Part shown: positions 2 through 41,495 of the stretch, in pieces | Position numbering within the stretch: the first letter of the stretch is position 1 | Layout of the letters: every line of letters begins with the position of its first letter | DNA from: Candidatus Latescibacterota bacterium | GTDB lineage: Bacteria > Latescibacterota > UBA2968 | Reading direction: 5' to 3' | NCBI GenBank assembly: GCA_965205975.1 | Contig: OZ242195.1 | Location: 1,472,001-1,536,000, forward strand | Length of the DNA stretch: 64,000 nt | Position numbers and translations under genes: made by a program | Notes under the pieces: generated by a model | Databases searched by the model: none | Seen by the model: the letters and a program-made list of their open reading frames with translations, nothing else | Told to the model about the DNA's origin: nothing

Positions 2-697
2 GAGCAGGAAACCCTGTTTAGCCGACAACTTTCAACGGAAATGGCCGTTGAAAGTGCGCGTAGAGCCTGGGCCGATGCAGAAGCCAATTATCAGGATGCC
101 CTCATCAAGATCGATAAAACTAAGCTATTAGCCCCCATTCAGGGCGTGCTGTCGGAACTTGCGGATATTACGCAGGGAACGCTGGTGACGCCAAATACCG
201 CAATCGCAAAAATTATGGATTATTCACAGGTATTTGTCGATCTGAAAATTCCCAATGCCCAGATTATTAATGTGAAATTGGGCCAGGGTATCCGCGTGAG
301 TAATTACGCTTTGCCCGAAGAAGTTTTTGAAGGTGAGATTGTCGAGATGGATCCGGCTATCGATCCGGTCACGCGTACAGTTCAGGTCGTCGGTATGGTA
401 GATAATCCCGACTTGCTTTTGCGGGCAGGCATGTTTGTCAAAACAGAAATAGTCACGGAATCGAGGCAAAATGTCGTACTTATTGCGCGCAATCTCGTTT
501 TGCGGCGGAGAAATCAGAAGGTCGTTTTTGTCGAAGAAGAAGGACGCGCACAACAACGCGAAGTCGAAACCGGACTGGAAGACCGCGATCGCGTGGAAAT
601 TGTGGTTGGACTTGAACCGGGAGACCAATTGATCACGAGCAATTACGAAACACTGAGGACGCGCACCCGGGTACGGGTCACGGGAGATAGCCGATGA
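2..697 (+). CDS. Efflux RND transporter periplasmic adaptor (membrane fusion protein), 5'-truncated by the window edge
   Basis: Frame open from position 2. MFP motifs LLAPIQGVL, DPAIDPVTRT, LLRAGMFV, VETGL..VEIVVGLEPGDQLI. Stop overlaps the ATG of the RND permease. Confidence 0.93.
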   Translation, partial: EQETLFSRQLSTEMAVESARRAWADAEANYQDALIKIDKTKLLAPIQGVLSELADITQGTLVTPNTAIAKIMDYSQVFVDLKIPNAQIINVKLGQGIRVSNYALPEEVFEGEIVEMDPAIDPVTRTVQVVGMVDNPDLLLRAGMFVKTEIVTESRQNVVLIARNLVLRRRNQKVVFVEEEGRAQQREVETGLEDRDRVEIVVGLEPGDQLITSNYETLRTRTRVRVTGDSR

Positions 698-3600
698 ATT
701 TGCCTGAATTTTCAACGCGATATCCCGTGACAATTGCCATGGCGACCCTTGCAGTGGTGTTGCTCGGCTGGATATCGCTGGACGGTTTGGGCACTGATCT
801 CTTGCCCGATTTGCAAACACCTGTCGTCACCATCGACCTGACGGCACCGGGCAAATCGCCTGTCGAGATCGAAGAAAGCTATACGCGCCGTCTCGAGCGC
901 GACGTGAGCACGATTAACGGCGTCAAGCGCGTATATTCGATTACCCGCTCTGGGCAAGCCGTGGTCATTGCGGAATTTGCCTGGGATGCGGACATGGATT
1001 ACGGGTTACTCGACGTGCAAAAAAGAGTGGGGCGCTATGCGGTCAATGAAGATGTGTCACAGTTGGATGTGACGCGAGAAGACCCGCTCGCGCTTGCGGT
1101 GATGCGAATAGCGATTACAGCAGACGAAAATACGGAACTCGACGCACTGATGGGCACGGTGGAATTACTGATCAAACCCAAATTAGAGGCCCTCGATGGC
1201 GTGGCGTCTGCCGAGGTGGAAGGGGGGGCGGAAAAGGAAGTGCGCGTTACACTCGATCCCTATTTGCTCGAAGCGTTTGGGCTTTCATCCGATGCGGTCA
1301 TCAATCGCATCGCACAGGCAAATGCCGATGTATCCGGAGGTACGCTCAGAGAAAACCAGCAATCGTATCTGGTCAAAGCCCTCGGTCGCTTAAATGACAT
1401 AAACGATGTGCGGGAAGTCATTGTGGGAGAAAGGCGCGGGGGTGGGGGTGTGGCTTCTGGAGACCGCGTGCCGGTGCGCGTGCGCAACGTGGGCACGGTT
1501 GACCTGGAATATCAAGAGCGAGAAACCATTGTGCGCCTCGATGGACGGGAATGCGTTGGCCTCGCCATTTACAAAGAAGCCGGTAGCAATACAGTCGCCG
1601 TGGTCAATACGGTATTGGATGCGATAGACGATATCGAAGCAGATCTGAGCGGCATGCACTTCACAACCGTCGAAAATCAGGCGCGATTTGTCGAAGACGC
1701 CATAGGCGAAGTCGAAACATCTGCCATCCACGGAGCATTTTTGGCGATTCTCGTGCTTTTGATCGCGTTGCGGAGTTGGACAGTGACGCTGGTGATAGGG
1801 TTGGCGATTCCCATTTCCGTATTGGCGACATTTACGCTTATGTATTTTGAGGGGCTGTCCCTGAATATTATGACGCTGGGCGGGTTGGCTCTGGGCGCAG
1901 GCATGCTCGTTGACAATGCCATTGTGGTCATTGAGAATATTTATCGGCATCTCGAAAGTGGCGAGGATGCGCGCACAGCATCGAGCCGCGGCGCATCTGA
2001 AGTCGGCGTGGCAATTCTGGCTTCAACGCTGACGACAGTGGCTGTTTTTTTGCCCATTGTCTATTTGCAGGGGCTGGCGGGCAAACTCTTTGTGGATCAG
2101 GCGTGGACTGTTGCATTTTCGCTGCTGTCATCGCTGGTTGTGGCAATGACGACGATTCCGATGCTGACGTCGCGCATTTTCCGGCGGCTGAATACCACGC
2201 GTCACACGACTATCCGGTCGGACAAATACTACCGGTTTCTCAATGGTATATTGAATCGCAAACCCATCCTGCTCGTCGTCGTACTGCTCATTCTGGGTGG
2301 AACCGGGTATATCGCCCGCGAGTTGCAGACGGAATTTATCCCGCGCGAAGATCAGGGGCTATTCCAAATTGATCTCACATTGTCCGAAGGTTCGCGTGTG
2401 GAACTGAGCGATCAGGTCGCTCTGCACGTCAAAGAGACTGTCGAAAGCGTTGGCGGAAGCGATGTAGCGCATGTGTACGCGCTGACCGGTCTCAACCCCG
2501 CTCAGATATCGAGTGGAGGCGATCCAACGGGACCCAATCGCGCGACCCTATCGGTGGCTTTGCACACACAGCGATCGCGCAGCGTCAGCGAGTTGGTGCG
2601 CGATCTGGATCCCATTTTGAGTGCCATGCCCGATATCGAAGTGAAATACAAGTTGCACGAAACCGCGCTCGAAGGCGTGATGGGCGGACAAGAAGCACCC
2701 ATTCAGGTCGAAGTGTCCGGGGAAAATCTCGATATTTTGGCACGCATCACAAAAGAGCTTCAGACGAGGATAGAGGGTCTTCCCTCGGTGTACAATGTGC
2801 GCACGAGTTTTCAGGGCGGACAGCCAGAAGTCGATCTGGCAATTCGCGATGAAGTGGCATCGGCTTTTGGGCTGACCACGCAAACCATCAGCCGCACACT
2901 GGAAAGACAACTGTCCGGTGAAGTTGCTGGCGAACTGTCTAAAGACCAGCGCACGCGGGATATCCGGGTAAAATATCGAGATATTGATCTGCGCGAACTC
3001 CACACCATGCAAATCGAAGGAGCAGATGGCGCGATCCTGACATTGGGGGATATTGCCGAGCTCAATATTATTGAAGGCCCCCGCGAAATTTTGAGAGAAG
3101 ATCAGCGTCGCGTGGGGCGCATTACGGGATATCTCACAGAAGGACGCATTCTAAGTGAAGCCGTTGCCGACGTACGCGCTACCATGCGGGAAGTGGTTGT
3201 GCCGTCGGGGTATCGCATTGAAATTGGCGGAGAAGAGCGTGAGCGAGCGGCATCATTTGAAAGTCTCAAATTTGCACTCCTGCTTTCGATTGTGCTGGTC
3301 TATATGGTGATGGCATCGCTGTTTGAATCCACGCTCCATCCGTTCACCGTCATGTTTTCCGTTCCACTGGCCGGCGTCGGCGTGATATTTGGATTCTATT
3401 TTTTGGGCGAACCGCTCAGTGTGATGGCCTATATCGGCATCATTATGCTGGGCGGTATTGCGGTCAACGATGCGATCATTCTCGTGGATCGCATCAACCA
3501 GCTCAGGCAAGCCGGCCTGACGTTGCGAGAAGCGATTCTACAGGGCGGTCAAGACCGCTTGCGCCCCATTATGATGACGAGTGCGACGACTATTCTCGCC

Positions 3601-3759
3601 CTGCTGCCCATGGCAATCGGCTTTGGCGAGGGGGCAAAATTGCGCGCGCCTATGGCTATTGCCGTCATTGCCGGCCTGGTGACATCGACATTGATGACCT
3701 TACTCGTGATACCCACCATGTATGAACTAATTGATCGCCTCCGGGGGAAATCCGCGTGA
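694..3759 (+). CDS. RND efflux permease (AcrB/AcrD/AcrF family), 1021 aa
   Basis: RND topology. TM4 GMLVDNAIVVIEN, TM10 GIAVNDAIILVD, RLRPIMMT motif. Confidence 0.95.
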   Translation: MNLPEFSTRYPVTIAMATLAVVLLGWISLDGLGTDLLPDLQTPVVTIDLTAPGKSPVEIEESYTRRLERDVSTINGVKRVYSITRSGQAVVIAEFAWDADMDYGLLDVQKRVGRYAVNEDVSQLDVTREDPLALAVMRIAITADENTELDALMGTVELLIKPKLEALDGVASAEVEGGAEKEVRVTLDPYLLEAFGLSSDAVINRIAQANADVSGGTLRENQQSYLVKALGRLNDINDVREVIVGERRGGGGVASGDRVPVRVRNVGTVDLEYQERETIVRLDGRECVGLAIYKEAGSNTVAVVNTVLDAIDDIEADLSGMHFTTVENQARFVEDAIGEVETSAIHGAFLAILVLLIALRSWTVTLVIGLAIPISVLATFTLMYFEGLSLNIMTLGGLALGAGMLVDNAIVVIENIYRHLESGEDARTASSRGASEVGVAILASTLTTVAVFLPIVYLQGLAGKLFVDQAWTVAFSLLSSLVVAMTTIPMLTSRIFRRLNTTRHTTIRSDKYYRFLNGILNRKPILLVVVLLILGGTGYIARELQTEFIPREDQGLFQIDLTLSEGSRVELSDQVALHVKETVESVGGSDVAHVYALTGLNPAQISSGGDPTGPNRATLSVALHTQRSRSVSELVRDLDPILSAMPDIEVKYKLHETALEGVMGGQEAPIQVEVSGENLDILARITKELQTRIEGLPSVYNVRTSFQGGQPEVDLAIRDEVASAFGLTTQTISRTLERQLSGEVAGELSKDQRTRDIRVKYRDIDLRELHTMQIEGADGAILTLGDIAELNIIEGPREILREDQRRVGRITGYLTEGRILSEAVADVRATMREVVVPSGYRIEIGGEERERAASFESLKFALLLSIVLVYMVMASLFESTLHPFTVMFSVPLAGVGVIFGFYFLGEPLSVMAYIGIIMLGGIAVNDAIILVDRINQLRQAGLTLREAILQGGQDRLRPIMMTSATTILALLPMAIGFGEGAKLRAPMAIAVIAGLVTSTLMTLLVIPTMYELIDRLRGKSA

Positions 3760-6700
3760 CACTTGCTGGTATTGCCGTTCTGCGGCCCGTGACTACGGCC
3801 ATGTTTTTTATAGGTCTGGCTATTTTAGGCGTGATTTCACTGGATCGGTTGCCCGTTCAGATATTTCCCGAACTCGTCCGCCCAGAAGTCTTTGTCGCAG
3901 TCACTCAACAGGGCTACTCGCCCGAACAGGTCGAACGGGATCTGGTAATGCCCGTCGAGAGAGAGGTGGGCAAGCTCGAAGGTATTGAAGCGTATGAGTC
4001 ATTTTCGCGCCAGAACAGTGGCGGGGTACGCATTTCCTACGCGCCCAATACGGATATGAAATTCGCGCTGCTGCAACTCGAGAGCCGCATCACGCGCCTG
4101 CAATCGCTTTTGCCGGAAAGAACGCGGGTCAATGTACAGCGCTTTGATGCCTCTGATCTGAGTGCCTCGATTATGCAAATCCACGTGTTGGGCGAAGGCG
4201 ATATAAACTGGTTGCGCGAATTTGCCGAGGAGAAAATCAGGCCGGAATTGGAAGCGGTCGATGGCGTTGTAAACGCGCAGGTCCTGGGCGGGCAAAGGAC
4301 GGCCATTGAAATTATTGTCGATCCATTGATGCTGCAAGCGCACCAGCTTTCGATGTCTGATGTTCGCAATCGCATCAATGCTTTTAATACGCGGCGGCAA
4401 TATCTCGGCAAAGTATATGATGGGGACCAGGCTTATGCGGTTAGCATTCAGGGCCAATTTACGGACCTCGTGCAAATCCGCAGAGTCGTTATCAAACCGG
4501 AATTGCCCCTGCACCTGGGCGACATTGCCAAAATTCGCTATGGCCTTCAGGAGCGTACAGACCTGCAACGCATCAATGGCAAAGCCGCCGTTGGCATTCG
4601 CATTCAAAAAGACGATGAAGCCAATCTGATCGAACTTGCGGGAGAACTTGAACACACCATCGAGCGAATAAATGGCGATCTCGCATACGAAAATATCCAG
4701 CTCGTGATCAGCCAGAATCAGGCAGAGATTATGAACGAAGCCCTCAATTTCCTCAAACGGGCCGCTGTTGTTGGGGGATTGCTCGGGCTTTTTGTTTTGT
4801 TCTTGTTTTTGAGAAATCTGCGCTTTGTCGCTGTTTTGCTCCTCGCCATTCCGTGTTCTTTGCTGCTCACATTTAATCTGATGTATATGTGGGATCTCAG
4901 TTTGAACGTGCTCTCGATGTGCGGCCTCGCGCTTGCAGTTGGTATGTTGATGGACAACGGCATCGTGGTCATGGAAAATATCTTCAAGCATTTTGAACAG
5001 GGCAAATCTCCCAAAGAAGCCGCAAAAGCAGGAACTGATGAGGTCGCACGCGCCGTTGTTGCGGCAACCGCGACAACCATTACAGTCTTTTTGCCTGTTG
5101 TTTTTATCCAAAGCGACTTTCAGGATGTCCTGCGAGAATTCGCACTGTCCATCGCCTTTCCTCTGCTTGCCTCTCTTCTCGTAGCCCTCACACTCGTGCC
5201 TGCTCTGGCATCCAAAACCCTTTCTCTCGCATCTCGACCACCGACGGGAACAGGCTTGTTGATCGAGATGTACACGGTGTGCCTCAAAGCGGGCTTGCGC
5301 CACAGAATCAGCGTATCGCTGGGTATTATCGGCGCGCTTGTCATCACGCTAATCATTTCTTTTTTCTTTATGCTACAACAGGATATCCGTCGCGAAGAAA
5401 ATCGTTTTACAGTATATATCAGCATGCCCGAAGGCACGACTATCGAAGCCCTCGATGCTGTTGTTGGCGAAATTGAAAGTGCTGTGCGAGATCTCAAAGG
5501 TGTGGATCGCTTTACGACCAGTATCAGCGAAACCCAGGCGAGTATCAATGTGGAGCTTTTGTCCTTATCCGAACGCCCCGACCAGATTTCTGTCGATCTC
5601 ATCAAAGAGAATCTCGAAGAGTCGTTCGGTGATGTCCAAAATGCGATTGTGAGTTATGAGGCCATCGCACGCACAGGCAGGGGAGGTGGTGGGGGCCGAG
5701 GGGGAGGCGGGGGAGGCGGTATTCGGGGCACCCGTCAGGCTACTGGCGGATTCAATCTGGAAGGGGGCGCACCTTCGGAAATGGCTGTTATTCGCGGCTA
5801 TGATTTTACGGTGCTTCAAATGCTTGCCGACGATCTGGTCTATCGCCTCGAAGAATTGGAGGAAATCGATCCCAATAGCGTAAGAGCCGATGCAGAACGA
5901 GGCGCATCTGAAGTGCATGTTTTGCCCGATGAAGAAGTAATGTTTGATCGGCGATTGCAGGTGCGCCAGGTGCTCAATGCCGTATCCGACGCCAATCCGC
6001 GCGGTGCGCGATCCAATATTTCATTTCTCACACCCGAAGGCACTGAAATCCCGATTGATGTCCGCAATGTCGAAGACCCCGAAGAAGAGGGAGAAGGGAT
6101 TGCGGGTTTGAGACAAACGCCGATACTGGGTTCAGGGGGGACGTACATTCCCCTTGTAGAGGTCTCGCATGTGCGCCGGGATCAGGGCAGGAGCATGATT
6201 TTGCGCACCAATCAATCGCGGCGCGTAATTGTATCCTATAATTTCGCCGAAGAAATTTTGCAATCTCAGCCTCTGCTGGAAGCCTCGCGCGCTTATGTGC
6301 AAGATGTGGTTTCCGAAATGGTGCTGCCCGAAGGGTATAGCATCGAAATGATCGAGGCAGAGGAAGAGACGATTTATTACTGGATGATGGGCATTGCCGC
6401 GTTGTTGATTTTTATGATTTTGGCCTCTTTGTTTGAATCGCTTTCTGCGCCTTTGATTATTCTGTGTACGTTGCCCGCAGCAATTATTGGATCGTGCTTG
6501 GCACTGATCTTATCAGGTACGGGATTGACCTCGCAAGAAGCGCCAATGGCACTGTTGGGGCTTATTGTTTTGAGCGGCATTGCCGTCAACAATGGGATCG
6601 TGCTAATCGATGCGATTGAAACCCTTCGCCGCCGCGGGTTCAGGCGAGAACGCGCGGTACTCACGGCGAGCCGGTCGCGCGTGCGTCCTGTTTTAATGAC

Positions 6701-8480
6701 TTCAGCAACCACCATTTTGGGCATGTTGCCTCTGGCACTCATATTTGGCGGCGATTACGAAATTTGGCCGCCCTTTGCGATTGTGGTAATCGGAGGGCTG
6801 GCGGTTTCAACGGTTTCCACCCTCGTGTTTATTCCCGTGGTGTACATGGGAATTGATCAGACTAAAGCCTGGCTGACGGATATTGGGTGGTTCGGGATCG
6901 TATTGGGAACAACGGCAGCTGCGGGATTGACGTATTGGGTTGACGATTATTACCAGAGTTTGTTCTGGACCTGTCTTTTGGCATTGCCAGCGTGGATGTT
7001 GTGTATGGGTGTGATCTGGGTTGTGCAACGCATTTATCGCGCGCGTATGGCTTCTCTTGCTGAGATCGGCAATATTGAACATCTCGAAATTCGCAATCTG
7101 ACCAAAATTTACGGCGCGCCGGGACGATTTAAGCACGAATGGGATCGCTTTAAGCGGCGTCATCAGCGCCTTTTAGAGCGCGGGCAGGTATTGGTAGATA
7201 AAAAGGCGATTAAGGACAGTTTGTGGTGGAAGTTACCACTTTTGGCACTTATGACCTATTTGGAAACCTATTTTGAACAGGGAACCTGGATCTTTTTGAC
7301 CGCGCTTGCTATGTGGGGCCTTGTACATCACCTCGTGCTATGTGCAGCTGCTTTGCGCGATTTTCGGATCGAGAATAGATGGATATCACAAATCGCCCGA
7401 TTGATTTTGCCGCTGGTCTTTGTGGCCTTTGTGCATTGGCGTTTGGAACTTATATCTTTGACTATAGCCACCAGTGCGATCTATTTGCTCTATCGCATTG
7501 TCGGATTTTTGGCAAATCGCGTTGCACAAGGACGCATTGATCCCGAGCATATACCGGGCAAATTAGGCCCTGTTAAAGGCATCGTGTACCGCGGAGCTGC
7601 CGCCATTCCCTTGATTGGGGTTCCCCGCCCACAATTCCAGGCTCTCGGAGGTGTAAGTCTCGATATTCCGCGCGGCATGTTTGGACTTCTGGGTCCCAAT
7701 GGCGCGGGCAAAACCACGCTGATGCGAATTGTGTGTCGGGTTCTGTCGTCAAATTACGGATCTGTGCTCGCCAATGGCAAAATACCGCTTACGCATCGGA
7801 ATATGCAGGGGGTGATTGGATATTTGCCGCAGCATTTTGGCCTTTATCTGCACATGTCTGCGTATAATTATCTGGAATACCGCGCGCTTTTGGAAGGATT
7901 TAAGGATGGGATGGCTCGGCGCAAGCGCGTTCAAGAATGCCTGGAACAGGTCAATCTGTGGGATAGGCGCGACGATCCGATTGGTTCGTTCTCTGGCGGC
8001 ATGAAACAGCGCGTGGGCATTGCACAAACCCTGTTGCACTTGCCGCAGATTATCGTAGTGGATGAACCGACAGCGGGATTGGACCCACTCGAGCGGATCC
8101 GGTTCAGAAATCTGCTGGCGCGATTTAGCCAGGAAAAAATCATTATTTTTTCCACACATATTGTCGAAGATATTGCGGGCAGTTGTAACCGATTGGCTGT
8201 GCTGAATCACGGTAAGGTGCTCTACACGGGAACCCCGATTGAAATGCGCGATTTGGCACGCGATAAGGTGTGGGAGGCTCTGCTGCCAGATCCGCGTTTT
8301 GAAGCGCTGGAACGCGACCTGGATATGATTACACATGTGCGCGTACCCGACGGGATTCGGGTGCGATTCCTCGCTACTGATCCCATCCCAGAAGCACATC
8401 CAGTTGCGCCCACCCTCGAAGATGCATACCTCTATCTTTTGCGACATGGCGATGAATACAAACAGGCTAACATGGCGTGA
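3756..8480 (+). CDS. RND efflux permease fused to a C-terminal ABC ATPase domain, 1574 aa
   Basis: About 1030 N-terminal aa are RND (GMLMDNGIVVMEN, GIAVNNGIVLID, RVRPVLMT). C-terminal Walker A GPNGAGKT (7692-7715), Q-loop YLPQ, signature FSGGMKQR, Walker B IIVVDEP, H-loop STH. One uninterrupted ORF. Confidence 0.92.
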   Translation: MTLAGIAVLRPVTTAMFFIGLAILGVISLDRLPVQIFPELVRPEVFVAVTQQGYSPEQVERDLVMPVEREVGKLEGIEAYESFSRQNSGGVRISYAPNTDMKFALLQLESRITRLQSLLPERTRVNVQRFDASDLSASIMQIHVLGEGDINWLREFAEEKIRPELEAVDGVVNAQVLGGQRTAIEIIVDPLMLQAHQLSMSDVRNRINAFNTRRQYLGKVYDGDQAYAVSIQGQFTDLVQIRRVVIKPELPLHLGDIAKIRYGLQERTDLQRINGKAAVGIRIQKDDEANLIELAGELEHTIERINGDLAYENIQLVISQNQAEIMNEALNFLKRAAVVGGLLGLFVLFLFLRNLRFVAVLLLAIPCSLLLTFNLMYMWDLSLNVLSMCGLALAVGMLMDNGIVVMENIFKHFEQGKSPKEAAKAGTDEVARAVVAATATTITVFLPVVFIQSDFQDVLREFALSIAFPLLASLLVALTLVPALASKTLSLASRPPTGTGLLIEMYTVCLKAGLRHRISVSLGIIGALVITLIISFFFMLQQDIRREENRFTVYISMPEGTTIEALDAVVGEIESAVRDLKGVDRFTTSISETQASINVELLSLSERPDQISVDLIKENLEESFGDVQNAIVSYEAIARTGRGGGGGRGGGGGGGIRGTRQATGGFNLEGGAPSEMAVIRGYDFTVLQMLADDLVYRLEELEEIDPNSVRADAERGASEVHVLPDEEVMFDRRLQVRQVLNAVSDANPRGARSNISFLTPEGTEIPIDVRNVEDPEEEGEGIAGLRQTPILGSGGTYIPLVEVSHVRRDQGRSMILRTNQSRRVIVSYNFAEEILQSQPLLEASRAYVQDVVSEMVLPEGYSIEMIEAEEETIYYWMMGIAALLIFMILASLFESLSAPLIILCTLPAAIIGSCLALILSGTGLTSQEAPMALLGLIVLSGIAVNNGIVLIDAIETLRRRGFRRERAVLTASRSRVRPVLMTSATTILGMLPLALIFGGDYEIWPPFAIVVIGGLAVSTVSTLVFIPVVYMGIDQTKAWLTDIGWFGIVLGTTAAAGLTYWVDDYYQSLFWTCLLALPAWMLCMGVIWVVQRIYRARMASLAEIGNIEHLEIRNLTKIYGAPGRFKHEWDRFKRRHQRLLERGQVLVDKKAIKDSLWWKLPLLALMTYLETYFEQGTWIFLTALAMWGLVHHLVLCAAALRDFRIENRWISQIARLILPLVFVAFVHWRLELISLTIATSAIYLLYRIVGFLANRVAQGRIDPEHIPGKLGPVKGIVYRGAAAIPLIGVPRPQFQALGGVSLDIPRGMFGLLGPNGAGKTTLMRIVCRVLSSNYGSVLANGKIPLTHRNMQGVIGYLPQHFGLYLHMSAYNYLEYRALLEGFKDGMARRKRVQECLEQVNLWDRRDDPIGSFSGGMKQRVGIAQTLLHLPQIIVVDEPTAGLDPLERIRFRNLLARFSQEKIIIFSTHIVEDIAGSCNRLAVLNHGKVLYTGTPIEMRDLARDKVWEALLPDPRFEALERDLDMITHVRVPDGIRVRFLATDPIPEAHPVAPTLEDAYLYLLRHGDEYKQANMA

Positions 8481-9180
8481 GTTGCTTTTCTTTGTCGGAA
8501 AAATGCACAGCCTGAGCATGAAAATCGTGTTTCACCGCAAAATGATTTTTATGTTTGGCGGGATTGTGGCATATTACGCAATTTTGTACGCGATTGCAAT
8601 CTGGCGTCCAGGTGAAGGACTTTCAGTTGAACAAGCCCTCCATGTATTGGTTGAAGTACCGGGCACAGTGCTTGCAGTCTATCTGACGATGGATCTGGTG
8701 TCGGGGGAGAGAGATAAGGATACGCTCGAAATTCTGTTTAGCACGGCGATCAGTCACTACGCGACGTGGGCCGTGAGAATTGTGTCGATCAGCGCTGCGC
8801 TATTTGTCACGCTGATGGCAATGAGCACGATTTCCTACTATTTTTTTGCGGAATTCCCCTACCTTCTGGGGGGATTGAATGCATGTATCCCTGCCTTTTT
8901 TATGGTGGGAGCCACATTTTTGTTTTCTGTCTTGTGTCGCAGTGGCAATGCGGCAGGTATGCTCGCCGTTGGGCTTTTGATTGCGATTTTGCTTTCGACG
9001 GAGGTGTTTGAGGATACATCGTATTACCTTTTTCTCAAGCCATTTGACCCGCCTTCAGATTTAGATACCAGCCTGTGGGTAAATCGCGTGGTCTTAAACC
9101 GCGCGGGTATTGCCATTCTCGGTATATTGTTCATTTTTCTGGCTCTGAGGCGAATGATAGAACGCGAAAAGCTATTGTGA
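8446..9180 (+). CDS. ABC-2-type membrane permease
   Basis: About 6 hydrophobic segments and the ABC-2 motif SGERDKDTLEILFST. Overlaps the 3' end of the ATPase-fused gene. Start at ATG 8446 or 8452. Confidence 0.8.
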   Translation: MAMNTNRLTWRELLFFVGKMHSLSMKIVFHRKMIFMFGGIVAYYAILYAIAIWRPGEGLSVEQALHVLVEVPGTVLAVYLTMDLVSGERDKDTLEILFSTAISHYATWAVRIVSISAALFVTLMAMSTISYYFFAEFPYLLGGLNACIPAFFMVGATFLFSVLCRSGNAAGMLAVGLLIAILLSTEVFEDTSYYLFLKPFDPPSDLDTSLWVNRVVLNRAGIAILGILFIFLALRRMIEREKLL

Positions 9181-9355: not shown

Positions 9356-10018
9356 ATGCAGCCACCGCAACCGCAACAAGAAGATATACTGGTCTGGTTC
9401 CTCAAGGTTTGGGGTCAGATTGAAGCAAATTATATCAGAATCCTCACGGGATTTGGTATTGCCATTGTCGCTGCGTTGATAGTCCTGTTTTTTTATCGCA
9501 CACAAACACAACACGCAGAGGCGGCTCGCACAGCTCTCGGAGACGTTTATATCGCACTTTATGAAGGGCGCGTAGAAGATGCGCTTGCTGCATCGCAGGA
9601 AGTAATAGAAACCTACGCAGGCAAAGCCGAAGCGGGCGAAGCATTGATGGCACTGGCCAATTTGCACTATGAAGAAGGACGCATCGCAGAGGCCCAGACA
9701 TATTTTCAACAATACCTGGATGAATATCCAACAGATGGGCCATTGGGTTATGGTGCATGGTCGGGGTTGGCGTCCTGTTTTGAAAATGAAGAAAAATTTG
9801 CCGAAGCTGGTCAGCAGTTCGCATCCTTCGCAGAAGCACATCCCGGATCGCCATTTGCGCCGATAGCCCTGAAGGAAGCCGGCAGATGTTACGAACTCGG
9901 CAAAATGCCTCAGCAGGCGAGTGATGCGTATCAAAAGATCGTCAAAGAATACCATGAGTCGTCCGTCACAAGATTTGCACGCGGTCAATTGAACATGATG
10001 GGTATCGAGATAGATTAG
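9356..10018 (+). CDS. Membrane-anchored tetratricopeptide repeat protein (YfgM/CpoB-like)
   Basis: One N-terminal TM helix followed by TPR helices (ALMALANLHYEEG, YQKIVKEYHES). SD GGAGGA upstream. Confidence 0.8.
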   Translation: MQPPQPQQEDILVWFLKVWGQIEANYIRILTGFGIAIVAALIVLFFYRTQTQHAEAARTALGDVYIALYEGRVEDALAASQEVIETYAGKAEAGEALMALANLHYEEGRIAEAQTYFQQYLDEYPTDGPLGYGAWSGLASCFENEEKFAEAGQQFASFAEAHPGSPFAPIALKEAGRCYELGKMPQQASDAYQKIVKEYHESSVTRFARGQLNMMGIEID

Positions 10019-10138: not shown

Positions 10139-10366
10139 ATGGCAAATATTATCAACCCTCAATCGGATTCTGAAAGACTGGCAAAACTGGAAGGTCTAAT
10201 TGAGCAAATCGCCCAAAGGCTGACCAGCATCGAAAACCGCCTGAATAACATGGAAAGCCGCTTGAACAACCTGGAAAATCGCATGGACAAACACTTTCTT
10301 TGGGTTGTTGGTCTTATCCTTACAAGCTGGCTTTCGCTTGCGACACTGATCTTACTTAAAACCTGA
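10139..10366 (+). CDS. Small coiled-coil protein with C-terminal TM helix (DUF1640/XhlA-like architecture)
   Basis: Heptads IENRLNN/MESRLNN/LENRMDK followed by FLWVVGLILTSWLSLATLILL. Terminator follows. Confidence 0.7.
   Translation: MANIINPQSDSERLAKLEGLIEQIAQRLTSIENRLNNMESRLNNLENRMDKHFLWVVGLILTSWLSLATLILLKT
10232..10294 (+). repeat. Three degenerate 21-bp tandem repeats encoding coiled-coil heptads
   Basis: gaaaaccgcctgaataacatg / gaaagccgcttgaacaacctg / gaaaatcgcatggacaaacac. Confidence 0.7.
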
Positions 10367-10610: not shown

Positions 10611-11219
10611 CTACGTCATTTCTTTTGTGTCCGCGCGTCCAAGTCCAAGAGCCCGTTGATATAACAGATCTGACAGCCGCTGATTCTCTTCTCGGAGTTT
10701 CTGAATCGTTTCAGCACTTTTCTGTGCGGTTATTTCTACTTCTTCTTGTTGTCTGTGCAGCCAATTTGCGTTTTGTTCTGCTTGTTTTTCCCTTTCTTTT
10801 GCCATATTCAGCTCTTCTCGCGTTTTTTCGAGTTCTTCTTTTAGAGCACGTGCTTCCGTCCATCCAGACGCTGATGACGCCTCTAATTGCGCATTGCGTT
10901 CGTTTATACTGCGAATTTCCGCTCTCAGTTCCCTTTCAACTGTTTCGATCGCTGCCAATTTTCCCAATTGCTGTTGCTGGGCTTCAAATTCAGATTTTTC
11001 GACGAAAATTTGATCGGGATTATGGCTCATATCAATATGATTTTCCCTCATTTTTTTTCCAAATTTTTTCCTAAATAATTCCTCAATTTCATCTCTGGAT
11101 ATTTGCCAGGTCCCATTCCATTTTTCAGGCTTTAAAAAACCTCTATTAATATAATTTCTTATTGTTTTATCAGTCACTTTGAGAATTTTTGCAGCCTCGA
11201 CAATCCCGTAACTTTCCAT
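10611..11219 (-). CDS. MerR/excisionase-like HTH DNA-binding protein with long C-terminal coiled coil
   Basis: N-terminal YGIVEAAKILKVTDKTIRNYINRGFL..WQISRDEI, then about 110 aa rich in E/Q/K/R/L. SD AGGAGG. Confidence 0.8.
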   Translation of the reverse strand: MESYGIVEAAKILKVTDKTIRNYINRGFLKPEKWNGTWQISRDEIEELFRKKFGKKMRENHIDMSHNPDQIFVEKSEFEAQQQQLGKLAAIETVERELRAEIRSINERNAQLEASSASGWTEARALKEELEKTREELNMAKEREKQAEQNANWLHRQQEEVEITAQKSAETIQKLREENQRLSDLLYQRALGLGRADTKEMT

Positions 11220-12679: not shown

Positions 12680-15118
12680 TTACACCACAATATTGACCAG
12701 CCGATTGGGAATGACGATTATTTTTTTGGGATTATTATCTTGCACATGCGCCTTCACATTCGGCTGTTCCAAAGCCAGATTTTCAATCTCTTCCTGCCCA
12801 ACATCGACCTCAACTTCCATTCGCGCACGGACTTTGCCATTGACCTGAACCGGCATCTCAATCGTTGCTGGCCGAGCGAGATCTTCGTCCCATTCGGGCC
12901 AATTCTGTTGATGAACGCTGTACTCTCCCCCAATTCGAGACCAAAGCTCTTCAGAAAGATGCGGAGTTACAGGCGCTAAGAGTAAGACAAGCGTCTCAAT
13001 GGCTTCTTTCCACGCATCCGTATGCACTACAGGCGTATTTTGGGCCGCCAACAAACCATTGCTAAACGTCATAAGCGCGGCCAATGCTGTATTAAATCCG
13101 AAGGTCTCAAAATCTTCAGACACCTTGCGGATGGTCTGATGTGTTAAGCGCCGCAGATCATCCTGGGCTTCTTGCGTAGCATCGCCCTTTGTCGGAACAC
13201 CATTTTCAAGAACTATACGCCACACGCGGTTCAAAAATCTCGGGATACCTTCCAGGCTCGACGAATTCCACGGGCCGCCCTGTTCCCATCGACTCAAAAA
13301 CATCAAATAAGCCCGAATACAATCTATACCATACTGCCCTATCAAATCATCGGGATTGACAACATTGCCCCGCGACTTGCTCATTTTCTCTTGATCTTCA
13401 CCCAGAATAACGCCCTGATTAAACAAACGGGTCATCGGTTCATCATCACTGACGAGATCCACATCGCGCATGGCTTTGGTGAAAAATCGCGTGTAGAGCA
13501 GATGCATAGTCGCGTGTTCTATACCCCCTGTATATTGATCTATGGGCAACCAATATTCACCCTCGTGAGGTTCAAAAGGCCCCGCATCGTAATGTGGGCT
13601 TAAATAGCGGTATTGATACCAGGAAGAACACATAAAGGTATCCATTGTATCCGTCTCCCGTTGCGCCGAAGCACCACATTTTGGGCAGGTCGTGTGCAAA
13701 AAACCCTCGTGATATTTGAGAGGAGATTCACCCGTTGGCAAAAACTCCGCATCATCGGGCAGCATTACGGGGAGAGCACGCTCTGGCACGGGAACCGTTC
13801 CACATGTATCACAGTAAATAATCGGTATGGGACATCCCCAATAACGCTGGCGAGAAATCAGCCAATCGTGCAGGCGATAATTGATTTTTCTCTCGCCAAT
13901 GCCCTGTGATTCCAGATCATCGGCCACTGCATCTTTTCCATCTTGCGAGGGCAAACCATCAAAGCTCCCTGAATTTACCATACGTCCCGCGCCAGTATAT
14001 GGCTGGATGAGTGTTTCACCGTCCCAATCATCCGGGGCAATCACAACGGGAATGGACAACCCATACTTTTTTGCAAAATCAAAATCGCGTTCATCGTGTG
14101 CGGGCACAGCCATAATGGCTCCTGTACCATATTGTAGCAACACATAGTCGGCGATGTAAATGGGTACATCGGCATTGTTCATGGGATTAATCGCATAAGC
14201 ACCAGTGAAAACCCCATCCTGTTCTTTATCTGCAGAAAGACGCTCGATCTCCGACTGACGGCTGGCTTTTGCACAATATGCTTTAACAGCTTCCCGCTGG
14301 TTGGGCGCGGTTATCTCATCAACTAATGGATGCTCGGGTGCTAAAACCGCAAATGACATGCCCAAAATGGTATCTGGACGCGTTGTGAACACGTGAAACG
14401 AAGAATCTGAATTTTTGACGCGCATTTCAAATTCAACACCTTCACTCCGTCCAATCCAATTCTCCTGCATGGCCTTCACACGGTCGGGCCACTCGATTTC
14501 TGAAAAATCGAGTAATTCTTCAGCATATCTGGTAATCCGAAACAACCATTGATCCAGGTCCTTTTTAATCACGGGCGTATCACACCGCTCGCAGTGTCGA
14601 TCCTCGCCCCAAACCTGCTCTCGGGCCAGGGTCGTATTGCACTTTGGACACCAATCAACGGGAGCTTTTTCGCGATAAGCCAGATCATTGGCGTAAAATT
14701 TGAGGAATAACCACTGTGTCCATCTGTAGTATTCAGGCAAACAGGTGATCGCTTCGCGCGTCCAGTCAAACATTGCACCCATTGTTTTCAGTTGTCCGCG
14801 CATGCGTTCCACATTGTCCAGCGTCCATTTTGCCGGATGAATACCCCGTTGGATTGCAGCGTTTTCAGCCGGCAATCCAAAAGCATCAAAACCGATTGGA
14901 AACAATACATTATGCCCCTTCATCCGCATATATCGCGCCCGAACATCAGAAGGAACAATCGCATACCAGTGACCAATGTGGAGATCACCTGAAGTGTAGG
15001 GAAGCATCGTCAAAGCATAGTGCTTGGGGCGGTTGAGATCAATTTGGCTGCGGTACAATCCGGTGTCTTCCCAGCCTTGACGCCATTTTTTTTCAATTTC
15101 AGCAAACTCGTAAGCCAT
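12680..15118 (-). CDS. leuS: Leucine--tRNA ligase
   Basis: HIGH and KMSKS motifs, editing domain FTTRPDT, DWLISRQRYWG. Likely start MAYEFAEIEKKW at 15118. Confidence 0.98.
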   Translation of the reverse strand: MAYEFAEIEKKWRQGWEDTGLYRSQIDLNRPKHYALTMLPYTSGDLHIGHWYAIVPSDVRARYMRMKGHNVLFPIGFDAFGLPAENAAIQRGIHPAKWTLDNVERMRGQLKTMGAMFDWTREAITCLPEYYRWTQWLFLKFYANDLAYREKAPVDWCPKCNTTLAREQVWGEDRHCERCDTPVIKKDLDQWLFRITRYAEELLDFSEIEWPDRVKAMQENWIGRSEGVEFEMRVKNSDSSFHVFTTRPDTILGMSFAVLAPEHPLVDEITAPNQREAVKAYCAKASRQSEIERLSADKEQDGVFTGAYAINPMNNADVPIYIADYVLLQYGTGAIMAVPAHDERDFDFAKKYGLSIPVVIAPDDWDGETLIQPYTGAGRMVNSGSFDGLPSQDGKDAVADDLESQGIGERKINYRLHDWLISRQRYWGCPIPIIYCDTCGTVPVPERALPVMLPDDAEFLPTGESPLKYHEGFLHTTCPKCGASAQRETDTMDTFMCSSWYQYRYLSPHYDAGPFEPHEGEYWLPIDQYTGGIEHATMHLLYTRFFTKAMRDVDLVSDDEPMTRLFNQGVILGEDQEKMSKSRGNVVNPDDLIGQYGIDCIRAYLMFLSRWEQGGPWNSSSLEGIPRFLNRVWRIVLENGVPTKGDATQEAQDDLRRLTHQTIRKVSEDFETFGFNTALAALMTFSNGLLAAQNTPVVHTDAWKEAIETLVLLLAPVTPHLSEELWSRIGGEYSVHQQNWPEWDEDLARPATIEMPVQVNGKVRARMEVEVDVGQEEIENLALEQPNVKAHVQDNNPKKIIVIPNRLVNIVV

Positions 15119-15131
15119 TGGAATACAACTC

Positions 15132-16427
15132 CTAAGGATATAATCTTTGCAAAAGTCGGGGAAATGGAATCGTCTCGCGGACATGGGACAACCCACATAT
15201 CCACGCGACTGTACGCTCAATACCCAATCCAAAACCGGAATGTGGCACCGATCCATAGTGCCTGAGGTCCAGGTACCACTGGAACGGCGCCTCATCAAGA
15301 CCGTGTTCGGCGAGCTTCCGCCGCAAGACCTCCAGATCGTCCTCGCGCTGTCCCCCACCGACGATTTCGCCGTATCCTTCGGGGGCCAACACATCCATAC
15401 ACAATGCCAGTTGGGAATCTTCCGGATCCCCCTTCATATAAAAAGCTTTGCAAGCTGCCGGATACCGATGCACGATCACGGGACGATCGTGTGCATTGGC
15501 CAACACGGTTTCATCTTCAGCACCAAAATCCTCCCCCCATGTGTGATCGCTACCCGCGTCTTTGAGTAACTCATGTGCATCTGAATAAGATATCCTATGA
15601 AATGGTTTTTGCACCCGTTGTAGGGGCGCAAGGTCGCGTTCTAAGGCCACAAGCTCAGACCGACAGGTTTCTATCACGCGCTGAACAACACAACAGATAA
15701 AGTCTTCAGCCAGATCCATATTACCCGACAAGTCCATATAGGCCACCTCTGGCTCAACCATCCAAAATTCGGTCAAATGACGCCGCGTCTTGGATTTCTC
15801 AGCTCGAAAGGTAGGCCCAAAACAGTACACCTTTCCAAATGCCATAGCTGCTGCTTCCATATATAGTTGACCACTCTGTGTCAAATATGCTGTCTCGTCG
15901 AAATAATCGGTTTCAAAAAGCGTGCTGGTACCTTCGCAGGACGACGGGGTAAATATAGGCGCGTCAACAAGTGTGAAGCCATTGTTGTCGTAATAATCTC
16001 GACAGGCTTTGACAATCTCGGCACGCACGCTTAAAATGGCGTGCTGGCGCGATGAACGCAGCCATAAATGGCGATGATCCATCAAAAATGCCGTGCCGTG
16101 TTCTTTGGGCGTAATCGGATAATCCTCTGCACAATGTACAATTTCGATAGCGCTGACACCAATTTCAAACCCGATAGGTGAACGCGCATCGGCCCGAACC
16201 GCACCCGTCACGCGAAGGGCCGACTCTTGCCCCAGATCTGAAGCCCTTTCAAAAACATCTGGCGATACATCGCCCTGAAAGACCACGCACTGAATCGTAC
16301 CAGATCCATCTCTGACCTGAAGAAAGTGCAATTTTCCACTCGATCGTTTGTTGTACAACCATCCCTCGATCACAACTTCTTTATTTTCCCATGCACTTAC
16401 GTCGTCTATCCTGATGATATCTGGCAT
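15132..16427 (-). CDS. asnS: Asparagine--tRNA ligase
   Basis: [46 protein letters not shown]. Confidence 0.96.
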
Positions 16428-39173: not shown

Positions 39174-41495
39174 ATGGACCTCTCCAAATTTCAAGATGAT
39201 ACCATTCTCGCCGAATGGATGCTCTCAGAAGCTGAACAGGGGGAACACGCCGACCTCCCCATGAAAATTGGCGATTGGAACTGCGCCAACGAGATTCGCG
39301 CTGAAATTTTCCTTCCGGACAATGTCGATGACCAGATCTACTGCACCCTCACCTCGGGGCACCGAACCGAAGGCATGAGCGAAGACGATGGCTATCGATT
39401 CAACGCCATCGCCTCCCCGCGCGGAGGCAATATCTGGCAGGGTTGGCGAGAATTTCGCTTTCCCGCCGAATGTTTTTACACTTTGGGCATTCCCTCTGGA
39501 TGGGGTCAGATGGTCTCGGGCACCATCCGCCTACCATCGGGCAGTCGCATCCGAAATATCCGCCTGCTCCAGCGCGAAGTCGCGCGCGGACCTCGCATGA
39601 CCGACAAAGCTCTGATCAACGCTCTGGACCTGAACCATCCCGGCCTTGAAGCCGCAGCGCAAGCCGATACAATCCAGACCCAACTTGCAGAAATTGCAGC
39701 CTGCTTCCGGCGCAGCACCTTCAATAGACGCCACGTTATACCCGATCCCGCTCCCAAAGCCAATATAGAAGAAGCCAACCGGATTCTCGCCGGGCACATC
39801 ATGGACCATTACTGGCCCGACGGTGTTGATTGGGACGCCAATCCGTATGGATACATCGAATGGTCCATCCGCATCCACGGCTTTCCCTATTTCACCCCGC
39901 TCGAACTCGCCTGGGAAGAAACCCGCGACCCGAAATACGCAAAAGCCATCGAAAATATCTTGCGCGACTGGATGCAAAAAACCCCCATGCCCTACGACGT
40001 GCGCGCCGGTGGCCTTGCATGGGGGCATTCTCTAATCGTGAGCATGCGGGCATTCTCCACACTCGTCGATATCTTCACCGTACTCTGCGATTGCGCAGAG
40101 ATCGAAGACCAGACCATCATAGATCTGCTCAAATCAATCTACGAACACGAAGCCTACCTCTTAAAATTCGAATCCTTCCCACCCTCCAACAAAACCATCT
40201 CCGAAGGCCGCTCCATGCTTGCGACTGCCTGCTCATTCCCCGAATTTCGGGAATCGGAAGAATGGTATCATGCAGCCAGCCAGCAACTCCTGAACGACAT
40301 GAACATTCAGGTCATGCGCGATGGTGCTTCTTACGAACTCACCCCAGGCTACCAGATAGCTATCGCGGCCTGGTTCCTGGAAGTTTTTGAAGTCGCCCGT
40401 AAATTTGGCCGATCTCTGGATCCGGAAATAGAAGCAGGCATAAGGCGAATGTACGACTGGAGTGCCTCCGTCAACCGTCCCGATTTCTCCTGTCCCTCTG
40501 TTTCTGACGCCGGCAGCCTGGATGGAAAATTCGCGCGTTCGCTTATCAAACCTGGACGGGTACTCGATAATTCGAGCGCCTTATGGGTCGGCACAGAAGG
40601 AGAAGAAGGGCATCCTCCTGACTATACCTCCATCGCCCACCGCGATTCGGGCTATTTTGTCATGCGAAGCGGATGGGACCGCGATGCTCGATACTGTCTC
40701 TTTGAAGGCGGTCCCTACGGTCGCTTCCACCAGCACGAAGACATGCTTTCCTTCGACCTCTACGCACATGGCCTGCCTTTTCTTGTGGATCCCGGAATCA
40801 CTTCCTACTTCCCCAATGAATGGACATCCTTCTACCGCACCACTGAAGCGCACAATACCGTTCTCGTAGATGGTTGCGGGCAGAACCGCCGCGAACAGAC
40901 CATCGACGAATGGATCGAATCTGCCCGCGACAAAACCGTCTGGCGAAGTGATCATCGAGCCGATGTCGCCATTGCCACTTATGATGCGGGTTATGTCGGG
41001 CTGGACGCAGATATTGCCCACCGCCGCACCGTCATGTTCGTCAAACCCAACTATTTTCTCATATTCGACGAACTCATTGGCGAGGGACAACACACCTATG
41101 AAGCGCTCTTTCACTTCATGCCCTATCGCGTCCTGATTGATCCCGATACCAGAGCCGTGCGTACCGGGCGCATGACCCCGCCCAATCTCGAAATCCTCCC
41201 CCTCGTCAACATGACGCCCCGGCTTATCTGCGGACAAAATGATCCCGTACAGGGCTGGCTCGCCATCAGCGGTCAGGATGTGCCCGCACCGGTCGCCATT
41301 TACAAGAAACGCGCGACACTGCCCTTCCGAACCGGCTATGTCCTCGTCCCCTTCACAGACGGCACCACCGCTGGCATCACTTCCAGAATCACCCGCCGTG
41401 GCGATACCTGGAACGTGTACATCACCCATCCAGATGGCCGTGTGGATCGCATTAAAATGGACTGGTGTGATAAACAGGGACCAGTGCTTACCTAA
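39174..41495 (+). CDS. Heparinase II/III-like polysaccharide lyase family protein
   Basis: DGASYELTPGYQ, SGYFVMRSGW, HQHEDMLSF, LVDPGITSY, TEAHNTVLVDG. Confidence 0.85.
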   Translation: MDLSKFQDDTILAEWMLSEAEQGEHADLPMKIGDWNCANEIRAEIFLPDNVDDQIYCTLTSGHRTEGMSEDDGYRFNAIASPRGGNIWQGWREFRFPAECFYTLGIPSGWGQMVSGTIRLPSGSRIRNIRLLQREVARGPRMTDKALINALDLNHPGLEAAAQADTIQTQLAEIAACFRRSTFNRRHVIPDPAPKANIEEANRILAGHIMDHYWPDGVDWDANPYGYIEWSIRIHGFPYFTPLELAWEETRDPKYAKAIENILRDWMQKTPMPYDVRAGGLAWGHSLIVSMRAFSTLVDIFTVLCDCAEIEDQTIIDLLKSIYEHEAYLLKFESFPPSNKTISEGRSMLATACSFPEFRESEEWYHAASQQLLNDMNIQVMRDGASYELTPGYQIAIAAWFLEVFEVARKFGRSLDPEIEAGIRRMYDWSASVNRPDFSCPSVSDAGSLDGKFARSLIKPGRVLDNSSALWVGTEGEEGHPPDYTSIAHRDSGYFVMRSGWDRDARYCLFEGGPYGRFHQHEDMLSFDLYAHGLPFLVDPGITSYFPNEWTSFYRTTEAHNTVLVDGCGQNRREQTIDEWIESARDKTVWRSDHRADVAIATYDAGYVGLDADIAHRRTVMFVKPNYFLIFDELIGEGQHTYEALFHFMPYRVLIDPDTRAVRTGRMTPPNLEILPLVNMTPRLICGQNDPVQGWLAISGQDVPAPVAIYKKRATLPFRTGYVLVPFTDGTTAGITSRITRRGDTWNVYITHPDGRVDRIKMDWCDKQGPVLT

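Follow-up and report, generated by a model that had tools for sequence, protein, structure and literature searches.

An operon of Latescibacterota and other phyla encodes an RND permease fused to a split ABC ATPase, together with the parts of a type V ABC transporter

The window analysed here is a stretch of 64,000 nucleotides from a Candidatus Latescibacterota bacterium (contig OZ242195.1, positions 1,472,001 to 1,536,000), the first 9,180 nucleotides of which belong to an operon for an export system. One of its genes encodes a polypeptide of 1574 amino acids (aa), in which a complete resistance-nodulation-division (RND) permease is joined via a membrane linker to an ATP-binding cassette (ABC) ATPase. 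It is accompanied by genes for an adaptor (membrane fusion protein), a second RND permease (RND1), a free ABC ATPase and two ABC-2 permeases (TMD1 and TMD2). The set of genes is fixed across several phyla, and the motors are intact. The evidence tips slightly in favour of a novel type of envelope machine: a complete type V ABC transporter would sit covalently on an RND tripartite pump, a four-helix insert in the ATPase would pass motion or cargo directly to the RND, both ATP and ion-motive force would be spent per cycle, and a dead aminopeptidase would serve as the periplasmic hand-over domain. The features of the operon are given below, those upstream of the window in coordinates of locus L001.

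L001 11149-12042, entirely before the window: free ABC ATPase, 297 aa (ABC_tran, E 3e-31)
L001 12055-15537, wholly upstream of the window: large ABC-2 permease (TMD1) with a zinc-less M1 fold and a Golvesin_C domain, 1160 aa
2..697, + strand: adaptor, C-terminal part of the open reading frame (TIGR01730, 144 bits, above the cut-off)
694..3759, + strand: RND permease 1 (RND1), 1021 aa (ACR_tran, E 9e-232)
3756..8480, + strand: fusion of a second RND permease (RND2), a membrane linker and an ABC ATPase, 1574 aa (Pfam ACR_tran, E 1e-179; ABC_tran, E 1e-25)
3756..6854, + strand: fusion residues 1-1033, complete RND permease (Asp400 in transmembrane helix 4, TM4; Arg975 in TM11; Thr982)
6888..7058, + strand: fusion residues 1045-1101, two extra predicted membrane helices past TM12 of the RND (family hydropathy, AlphaFold2)
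7080..7112, + strand: fusion residues 1109-1119, beta-strand 1 of the ATPase with the A-loop aromatic Tyr1119 (model, alignment)
7113..7634, + strand: fusion residues 1120-1293, predicted insert within the ATPase at the beta1-beta2 loop (hydropathy, model)
7635..8480, + strand: fusion residues 1294-1574, remaining ATPase and C-terminal alpha/beta domain (motifs, model)
8452..9180, start possibly at 8446, + strand: small ABC-2 permease (TMD2), about 242 aa (alignment of 16 orthologues)

In a first-pass annotation, the region had been described as translationally coupled genes for an adaptor, an RND permease, a second RND permease continuing in frame into an ABC ATPase, and a terminal ABC-2-type permease. 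These reading frames are present as described, and their overlaps are visible in the sequence. The adaptor and RND1 genes share the bases ATGA and RND1 and the fusion share GTGA, both being four-base stop/start overlaps, while the TMD2 gene, whose start was placed at about 8446-8452 by alignment with relatives, overlaps the 3′ end of the fusion by about 30 nucleotides. The four genes are real, but the list was incomplete. The operon starts upstream of window position 1, where the free ATPase and then TMD1 directly precede the adaptor gene (357 aa in full, L001 15624-16697, beginning 377 bases before the window), and a TolC-type gene is added in most lineages. Similarly, RND2 and the ATPase do share one open reading frame, but the latter is no straight continuation of the former: of six extra predicted membrane helices, two lie between the domains and four inside the ATPase fold. 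In the ATPase part, Walker A (7692-7718) is followed by the Q-loop, the signature, Walker B, the D-loop and the H-loop. Promoter and terminator scans gave counts near the shuffled background and hence no usable signal.

The fusion is a single gene in its relatives as well. With residues 1030-1574 as query, 4413 matches were obtained; all 120 matches listed contain PF00873 and PF00005, and most are 1540-1650 aa long. A query from a distant member likewise returned both Pfam domains in 120 of 120 listed matches, the query included, so that the combined ACR_tran and ABC_tran architecture, for which a search had been proposed, was present in every match listed. Among these matches, Latescibacterota, Gemmatimonadota, KSB1, Calditrichaeota, Acidobacteriota, Chlorobi, Bacteroidota and Gammaproteobacteria are named as sources. 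The 16 closest genomes (76-96% identical) belong to Latescibacterota, and the architecture is kept down to 29% identity in a set of 242 distinct proteins of at least 1400 aa. A single fused open reading frame was found in 19 of 20 distant loci and in 36 of 41 further loci. In the window's phylum, the junction region is matched in 90 of 168 genomes; without six weak matches to the RND only, 84 are left, two of which carry a split fusion. The proposed check of sequence support across 6850-7700 had a favourable outcome: no indel or joint is listed there in four runs, the evidence being assembled contigs rather than reads, none of those listed spanning all of 6850-7700. A contig from a second study covers 5403-7231 with two substitutions and no gap. 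In the RNA runs, 27-28 of 30 bins are covered by contigs from related strains; these carry no information on transcription or its level. Database labels for the fusion name its two domains only. Deviations were seen in single contigs, namely a 2-base deletion at 8278 in one RNA contig and a skip of 109 bases at 8033-8143 in one contig. At locus L155 (G012:C278), the fusion is broken by a frame change inside the linker, which is either an assembly error or a real break.

Judged by its sequence, the fused ATPase looks active, and the motifs reported earlier (Walker A and B, Q-loop, signature, H-loop) are all in place. An alignment of 121 proteins shows no variation in Walker A, the signature, the Q-loop Gln or the H-loop His, with the Walker B Asp-Glu found in 120; each motif is present in 241 or 242 of the 242 long homologues. 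The D-loop of the fused ATPase is also intact, and the A-loop aromatic at residue 1119 is Tyr in 119 of the 121 proteins and Phe in two. Rough dN/dS values calculated against 11 close relatives were lowest in the ATPase core, at 0.029, compared with 0.098 in the RND part and 0.14-0.15 in linker and insert; the ATPase is the most constrained part of the fusion, under the strongest purifying selection. Residues 849-1574 were modelled with AlphaFold2 (99 sequences, predicted local distance difference test (pLDDT) 87, predicted template modelling score 0.69). Structural alignments of this model begin at the displaced strand and cover whole ATPase domains (1vpl: Z 25.8, root-mean-square deviation 2.4, 234 aligned residues); 4yer was matched with Z 27.5, a deviation of 3.4 and 264 aligned residues. 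NosF is among the top fold matches, its C-terminal domain included, and the C-terminal alpha/beta domain of the fusion resembles a domain that is regulatory in type V exporters. A quick tree was built from 99 ATPase domains; it does not settle the branching order or sister status of the two operon ATPases, but 23 insert-bearing fusions form one branch in it (support 98) and 13 free operon ATPases another (support 93). Both branches fall in a group with M1-linked ATPases.

An ATPase domain split by a bundle of membrane helices is unusual. In the fusion, about 175 residues separate beta-strand 1 from strand 2 and Walker A; the operon's free ATPase has a short loop at this place. Among 239 homologues in which this spacing was measured, it is longer than 100 aa in 238, and the insert sequence is about 20-25% identical between distant groups. 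In the AlphaFold2 model, the insert consists of a basic helix, four long helices and a second basic helix, and the hydropathy of the family indicates that the four long helices are probably transmembrane. Since the six extra helices come in two even sets, the ATPase would stay cytoplasmic. No Pfam family was detected in fusion residues 1031-1295 at E 0.1. An ESM Atlas search with the insert was uninformative, the best scores (0.77-0.78) falling on hypothetical proteins of 26-37 aa, and the result lists of fold searches with the 726-residue model were filled by ATPase matches. A profile search for a stand-alone origin of the insert gave 165 representatives, and no complete stand-alone insert was recognised among those of at least 290 aa that were examined; all but two of these also match the RND or the ATPase part, and those without RND look like fragments.

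Type V transporters require two ABC-2 domains and two ATPases. Both pairs are present in the operon, and the locus thus holds one whole type V transporter. The earlier reminder that ABC ATPases work as dimers is answered by the free ATPase and the second ABC-2 permease encoded upstream. All 17 orthologues of the free ATPase carry Walker A, the signature, Walker B and the H-loop, and 15 of them match the Q-loop pattern. The last gene was correctly called an ABC-2-type permease: TMD2 matches ABC2_membrane_3 only weakly (E 8e-4, under the cut-off), and profile comparison indicates homology to the ABC-2 domain of TMD1 (95%, E 2e-8). The ABC2 Pfam matches, weak in the window's own copies, are above the cut-off in orthologues from L146 (TMD1) and L022 (TMD2, ABC2_membrane_2).

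Besides its ABC-2 membrane domain, the TMD1 protein contains a fold of the M1-aminopeptidase type and a Golvesin_C domain. The M1 fold was modelled with a pLDDT of 75 and matched IRAP in Foldseek (E 3e-18, TM-score about 0.4 by target, 11-14% identity). An HExxH motif was found in none of the 17 copies of this M1 domain, the aligned columns holding other residues. Beside related stand-alone ATPases, the full zinc motif HExxH-E is present in 10 of the 15 long open reading frames examined. A profile comparison of the TMD1 protein with such active ABC-2/M1 fusions (99.9%) matched their second permease half and M1 only. Because these related two-gene systems encode an ATPase and one chain of permease, permease and active M1, the source of the ABC unit was probably an ABC transporter with paired permeases and one M1 domain. 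That the zinc site was lost from all 17 M1 domains linked to the operon suggests that their role has changed; reuse of a dead peptidase as a periplasmic arm would be unusual.

Pfam ACR_tran matches both RNDs over their full length (772 and 600 bits, cut-off 28). They are about 29% identical to each other, and the best solved relative of RND1 is MdtB (9lyq, E 1e-92). None of the NCBIfam MdtB, MdtC and RND_permease models scored above its cut-off (best 621 bits against 1250; MdtC 401 against 1774), and the RNDs are therefore not filed as MdtB or MdtC. The TM4 Asp reported in the first-pass annotation is indeed present in both, but the attribute "proton-driven" leans on this one residue, the second Asp and the TM10 Lys of AcrB being missing. 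In the fusions, Asp400 is found in 115 of 121 aligned sequences (6 gaps), Arg975 in 119 and Thr982 in 120; of 242 fusions, 240 have retained the TM4 Asp (Asp-Asn in 237, Asp-Ser in 3), and the position of the TM10 Lys holds Asn in 120 of 121. RND1 and its orthologues also show Asp-Asn in TM4 and no Lys in TM10. The Asp407-Asp408-Lys940 triad of the AcrB/MdtB type is consequently incomplete, the second Asp being replaced by Asn and the Lys lost, whereas the Asp of the GX3DX6E motif and the Arg and Thr of TM11 are kept in both RNDs. The same Asp-Asn/no-Lys pattern was found in 9 of the 17 other RNDs of this genome, so that the reduced charge pattern is a subfamily trait and not decay. The idea that the charge network decayed once ATP had taken over was rejected on these grounds. 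One acidic residue can suffice, and a site can still work when both of those charges are lost together, according to PMC5719797, which also describes the GX3DX6E motif. As the pattern is common among the RNDs of the genome and one acidic residue can be enough, ion coupling of both RNDs is plausible. Low-complexity stretches rich in Gly and Arg occur in the periplasmic part of the fusion (window positions about 5675-5720, residues about 640-655) and in the dead-M1 permease (L001, about 14150-14270 and 15400-15530); they are present with varying length in several orthologues. Another unusually long RND is encoded at G000:C1:2943623-2947582, where insertions split the Pfam match in an open frame of 1359 aa into four pieces.

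The order of the genes is strongly conserved. In 18 of 20 distant loci it reads free ATPase, permease-M1, adaptor, RND1, fusion and small permease, and the other two loci are cut; the proposed test for synteny with the ABC-2 permease thus turned out well. Of these 18, 12 have a TolC-type (OEP) gene within the operon; in two it lies just downstream, and four have none nearby. With the adaptor above its cut-off and an OEP gene within or next to the operon in 14 of the 18 loci, the parts of a tripartite pump are represented. Of 41 further loci, nearly all from Bacteroidota, 26 have all seven genes in order and none has them in another order; the remainder are cut by contig ends or by the flank, and one is broken by a transposase-like gene. 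Because the fusion served as bait in finding these loci and many of them are kin, the counts are not independent. Among the carriers are Odoribacter sp. Z80, Bacteroides sp. 519, Gaoshiqia sediminis and Puteibacter caeruleilacunae; the last two, like Mangrovibacterium marinum (WP_107823029.1), are cultured and non-pathogenic. The covalent RND-ATPase link with its fixed ABC-2 partner, the core of the earlier description, is real across phyla. In the divergent genome G170, all seven genes are kept in shuffled order. The system is near-universal in the window's genus (20/20) and family (28/30) and patchy elsewhere, with 24 of 76 in one family and, with the profile used, 4 of 401 sampled Bacteroidota genomes, the centre genome included. 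In the loci examined, relatives of the ABC unit are not accompanied by any RND. Loci L022 and L154 (G170:C30) encode an adaptor, an ATPase, a small permease, RND1, a 922-aa permease, a 1437-aa fusion lacking the insert and a TolC-type protein; this variant could be an early or reduced form. In Odoribacter laneus (L175, 102-1217), a transposase-like open reading frame (HTH_38 and integrase core) directly precedes a shortened permease-M1 gene, and the operon may be interrupted in this strain.

The favoured reading, at about even odds, is a single tethered ABC-to-RND relay exporter, an ABC heterotetramer on an RND heterotrimer. Two complete machines, a type V (ABC-2) transporter and an RND pump, would form one inner-membrane assembly. 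The type V unit would be built from four different parts, i.e. the free ATPase, the fused ATPase, the dead-peptidase permease and the small permease, and the RND pump from RND1 and RND2 with the adaptor and a TolC-type channel. The parts tally exactly: two ATPases, two ABC-2 domains, two RNDs and the adaptor. The RND trimer probably contains one fusion subunit (2:1, like MdtB2C), with its single fused ATPase pairing with the free one; this ratio is favoured because three fused ATPases would need three ABC units and the operon supplies one. The fused ATPase would dock on the two ABC-2 permeases, and the six extra helices would hold the ABC unit beside the RND trimer in the membrane. Driven by ATP, the ABC unit would move or lift the cargo to the periplasmic face, presumably in the outward direction. 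There, the zinc-less M1 fold would bind the cargo uncut and hand it to the RND, which would expel it through adaptor and channel by ion-motive force. The cargo is a guess, most likely a peptide or a lipidated peptide-like amphiphile.

Several observations weigh against such a relay. The divergent 1437-aa fusion of L022 is devoid of the four-helix insert, which is therefore not essential to the design. An in-operon TolC-type gene is missing in the window's lineage (nine OEP-family genes lie elsewhere in the genome). The canonical Asp408/Lys940 pair of AcrB is absent, and the TM10 Asn is altered in two divergent fusions. The fusion is split in two of the 84 matches in the phylum, at a run of N in one case and by an unexplained frame change in the other. 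The peptide nature of the cargo is deduced only from the M1 fold at 11-14% identity; no clue to the cargo came from the flanks, which differ and contain no recurrent biosynthetic genes in the loci listed. Finally, the co-occurrence of genes among kin is not independent.

A coupling that is purely mechanical is possible, although doubtful. In that case the ABC unit would move no cargo and would act as an ATP-driven lever, the dead-peptidase domain being a capture or sensing arm and the insert helices gating or powering the RND. NosF, one of the top fold matches, reportedly acts as a mechanical transducer in NosDFY. The RNDs have a reduced charge network, and the insert is located at the beta1-beta2 loop, where the gate helix of Wzt moves about 8 Å on ATP binding (PMC6379404). 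However, 240 of the 242 fusions still have their TM4 Asp, the reduced network is shared by stand-alone RNDs of the genome, and the insert is missing in one variant and only about 20-25% identical between distant groups.

A role in envelope biogenesis, in which a native lipid, lipoprotein or surface polymer precursor would be carried from the inner to the outer membrane, appears improbable. Type V ABC transporters do include flippases of lipid-linked polymers (PMC6379404, PMC11466899), the export of phthiocerol dimycocerosates (PDIM) by DrrABC and MmpL7 depends on an RND as well as on a type V ABC transporter (PMC11539658), and the near-universal presence in the window's genus (20/20) and family (28/30) would fit a native function. 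The patchy occurrence elsewhere (4 of 401 Bacteroidota, 24 of 76 in one family) does not, and the RNDs are AcrB/MdtB-like with adaptor and TolC-type channel rather than MmpL-like. Recurring biosynthetic neighbours were not found in the loci listed.

It is quite improbable that two independent transporters with separate cargoes are merely tethered and co-expressed, the fusion setting their ratio and place. Each module is complete by itself, the ABC unit has relatives that lack any RND at the loci examined, and nothing found indicates a shared cargo. Yet the fusion is kept down to 29% identity, the insert-bearing fused ATPases form one clade in the quick tree (support 98), all seven genes stay together even after shuffling, and the lost zinc site of all 17 M1 domains in the operons suggests that they serve another purpose. 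An artefact (lost stop codon, misassembly or dead ATPase) has a practically negligible probability in spite of the two split copies among 84 phylum matches, because the single open reading frame is conserved across phyla (19/20 and 36/41 loci, 240/240 listed matches fused), an independent contig crosses the RND-linker junction, and the ATPase motifs are invariant at a dN/dS of about 0.03.

A 220-aa tetratricopeptide repeat protein with an N-terminal membrane segment (9356-10018, + strand; YfgM/CpoB-like matches below the cut-off) follows the operon in close relatives only and is therefore not counted as part of it. Further downstream are genes for a 75-aa coiled-coil protein with a C-terminal hydrophobic helix (10139-10366, + strand; weak XhlA match under the cut-off) and for a 202-aa protein with an N-terminal helix-turn-helix of the excisionase/MerR type and a long coiled coil (10611-11219, − strand). 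Upstream of the operon, a secreted-looking protein of 1111 aa with five lamin-tail domains and a FlgD-like C-terminus is encoded (L001 5937-9272). Heparinase II/III-like genes are located at 39174-41495 (+ strand) and 56359-59064 (− strand), the former being followed by an S15 peptidase gene and a sulfatase-like open reading frame of 263 aa, which may be partial. A tRNA scan of the window gave no hit.

No description of the fusion or the operon was found in searches of the open-licence PMC and bioRxiv literature. The architecture is outside the transporter kinds found described, and its modules each have known relatives (MdtABC, TCDB 3.A.1.145, Wzm-Wzt, NosDFY). It is conserved across several phyla, gut Bacteroidota included, and cultured hosts exist. 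If both machines work as one, the system would be a dual-energy transporter and would allow a direct test of cargo passage from an inner-membrane transporter to an RND.

MdtABC-TolC and MuxABC-OpmB resemble the operon in combining one adaptor with two RND paralogues, and MdtBC is a B2C heterotrimer with divided roles (PMC4338810). In contrast to the operon, MdtABC has neither an ATPase fusion nor ABC partners, and MdtB keeps the Asp-Asp pair and the TM10 Lys, whereas the operon RNDs are without the second TM4 Asp and the Lys. Bodilis et al. 2024 (PMC10872679) describe the RND clades HAE-1, NFE, HAE-4 and HME. In TCDB 3.A.1.145 (Myxococcus Q1D520, 1200 aa, 13 transmembrane segments), an ABC-2 domain is followed by an M1 fold as in the TMD1 protein, and the gene adjoins that of a closely related ATPase (PMC3924187). 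There, both permease halves and an HExxH-bearing M1 form one chain, while the halves are two genes in the operon, where the zinc site is lost, Golvesin_C is added and two different ATPases are present, one of them fused to an RND.

The closest functional pairing is that of mycobacterial DrrABC and MmpL7, an RND and a type V ABC transporter with two permeases, both of which are required for PDIM export (PMC11539658). They are separate polypeptides with an MmpL-type RND, one ATPase gene and no known adaptor or TolC protein; the excerpt mentions no physical contact between the two. Wzm-Wzt and TarGH are type V ABC transporters, too. The extension of Wzt at the same beta1-beta2 loop is a single helix in the excerpted descriptions, compared with about 175 residues and four predicted membrane helices here. 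Neither these two nor NosDFY, from which the top fold match NosF stems, includes an RND. MacAB-TolC and the type 1 secretion systems share with the operon an ABC motor joined to an adaptor and a TolC-type channel, but in these the ABC transporter, of type VII or IV, is the pump itself; types IV and VII are also the only ABC groups named in tripartite assemblies in the excerpt of PMC8277102. In the operon, a type V ABC transporter is accompanied by a complete pair of RNDs. The two classes, RND and ABC, are usually treated as alternative engines for one adaptor-channel conduit, whereas here both are complete, seem to be active and are joined by one polypeptide.

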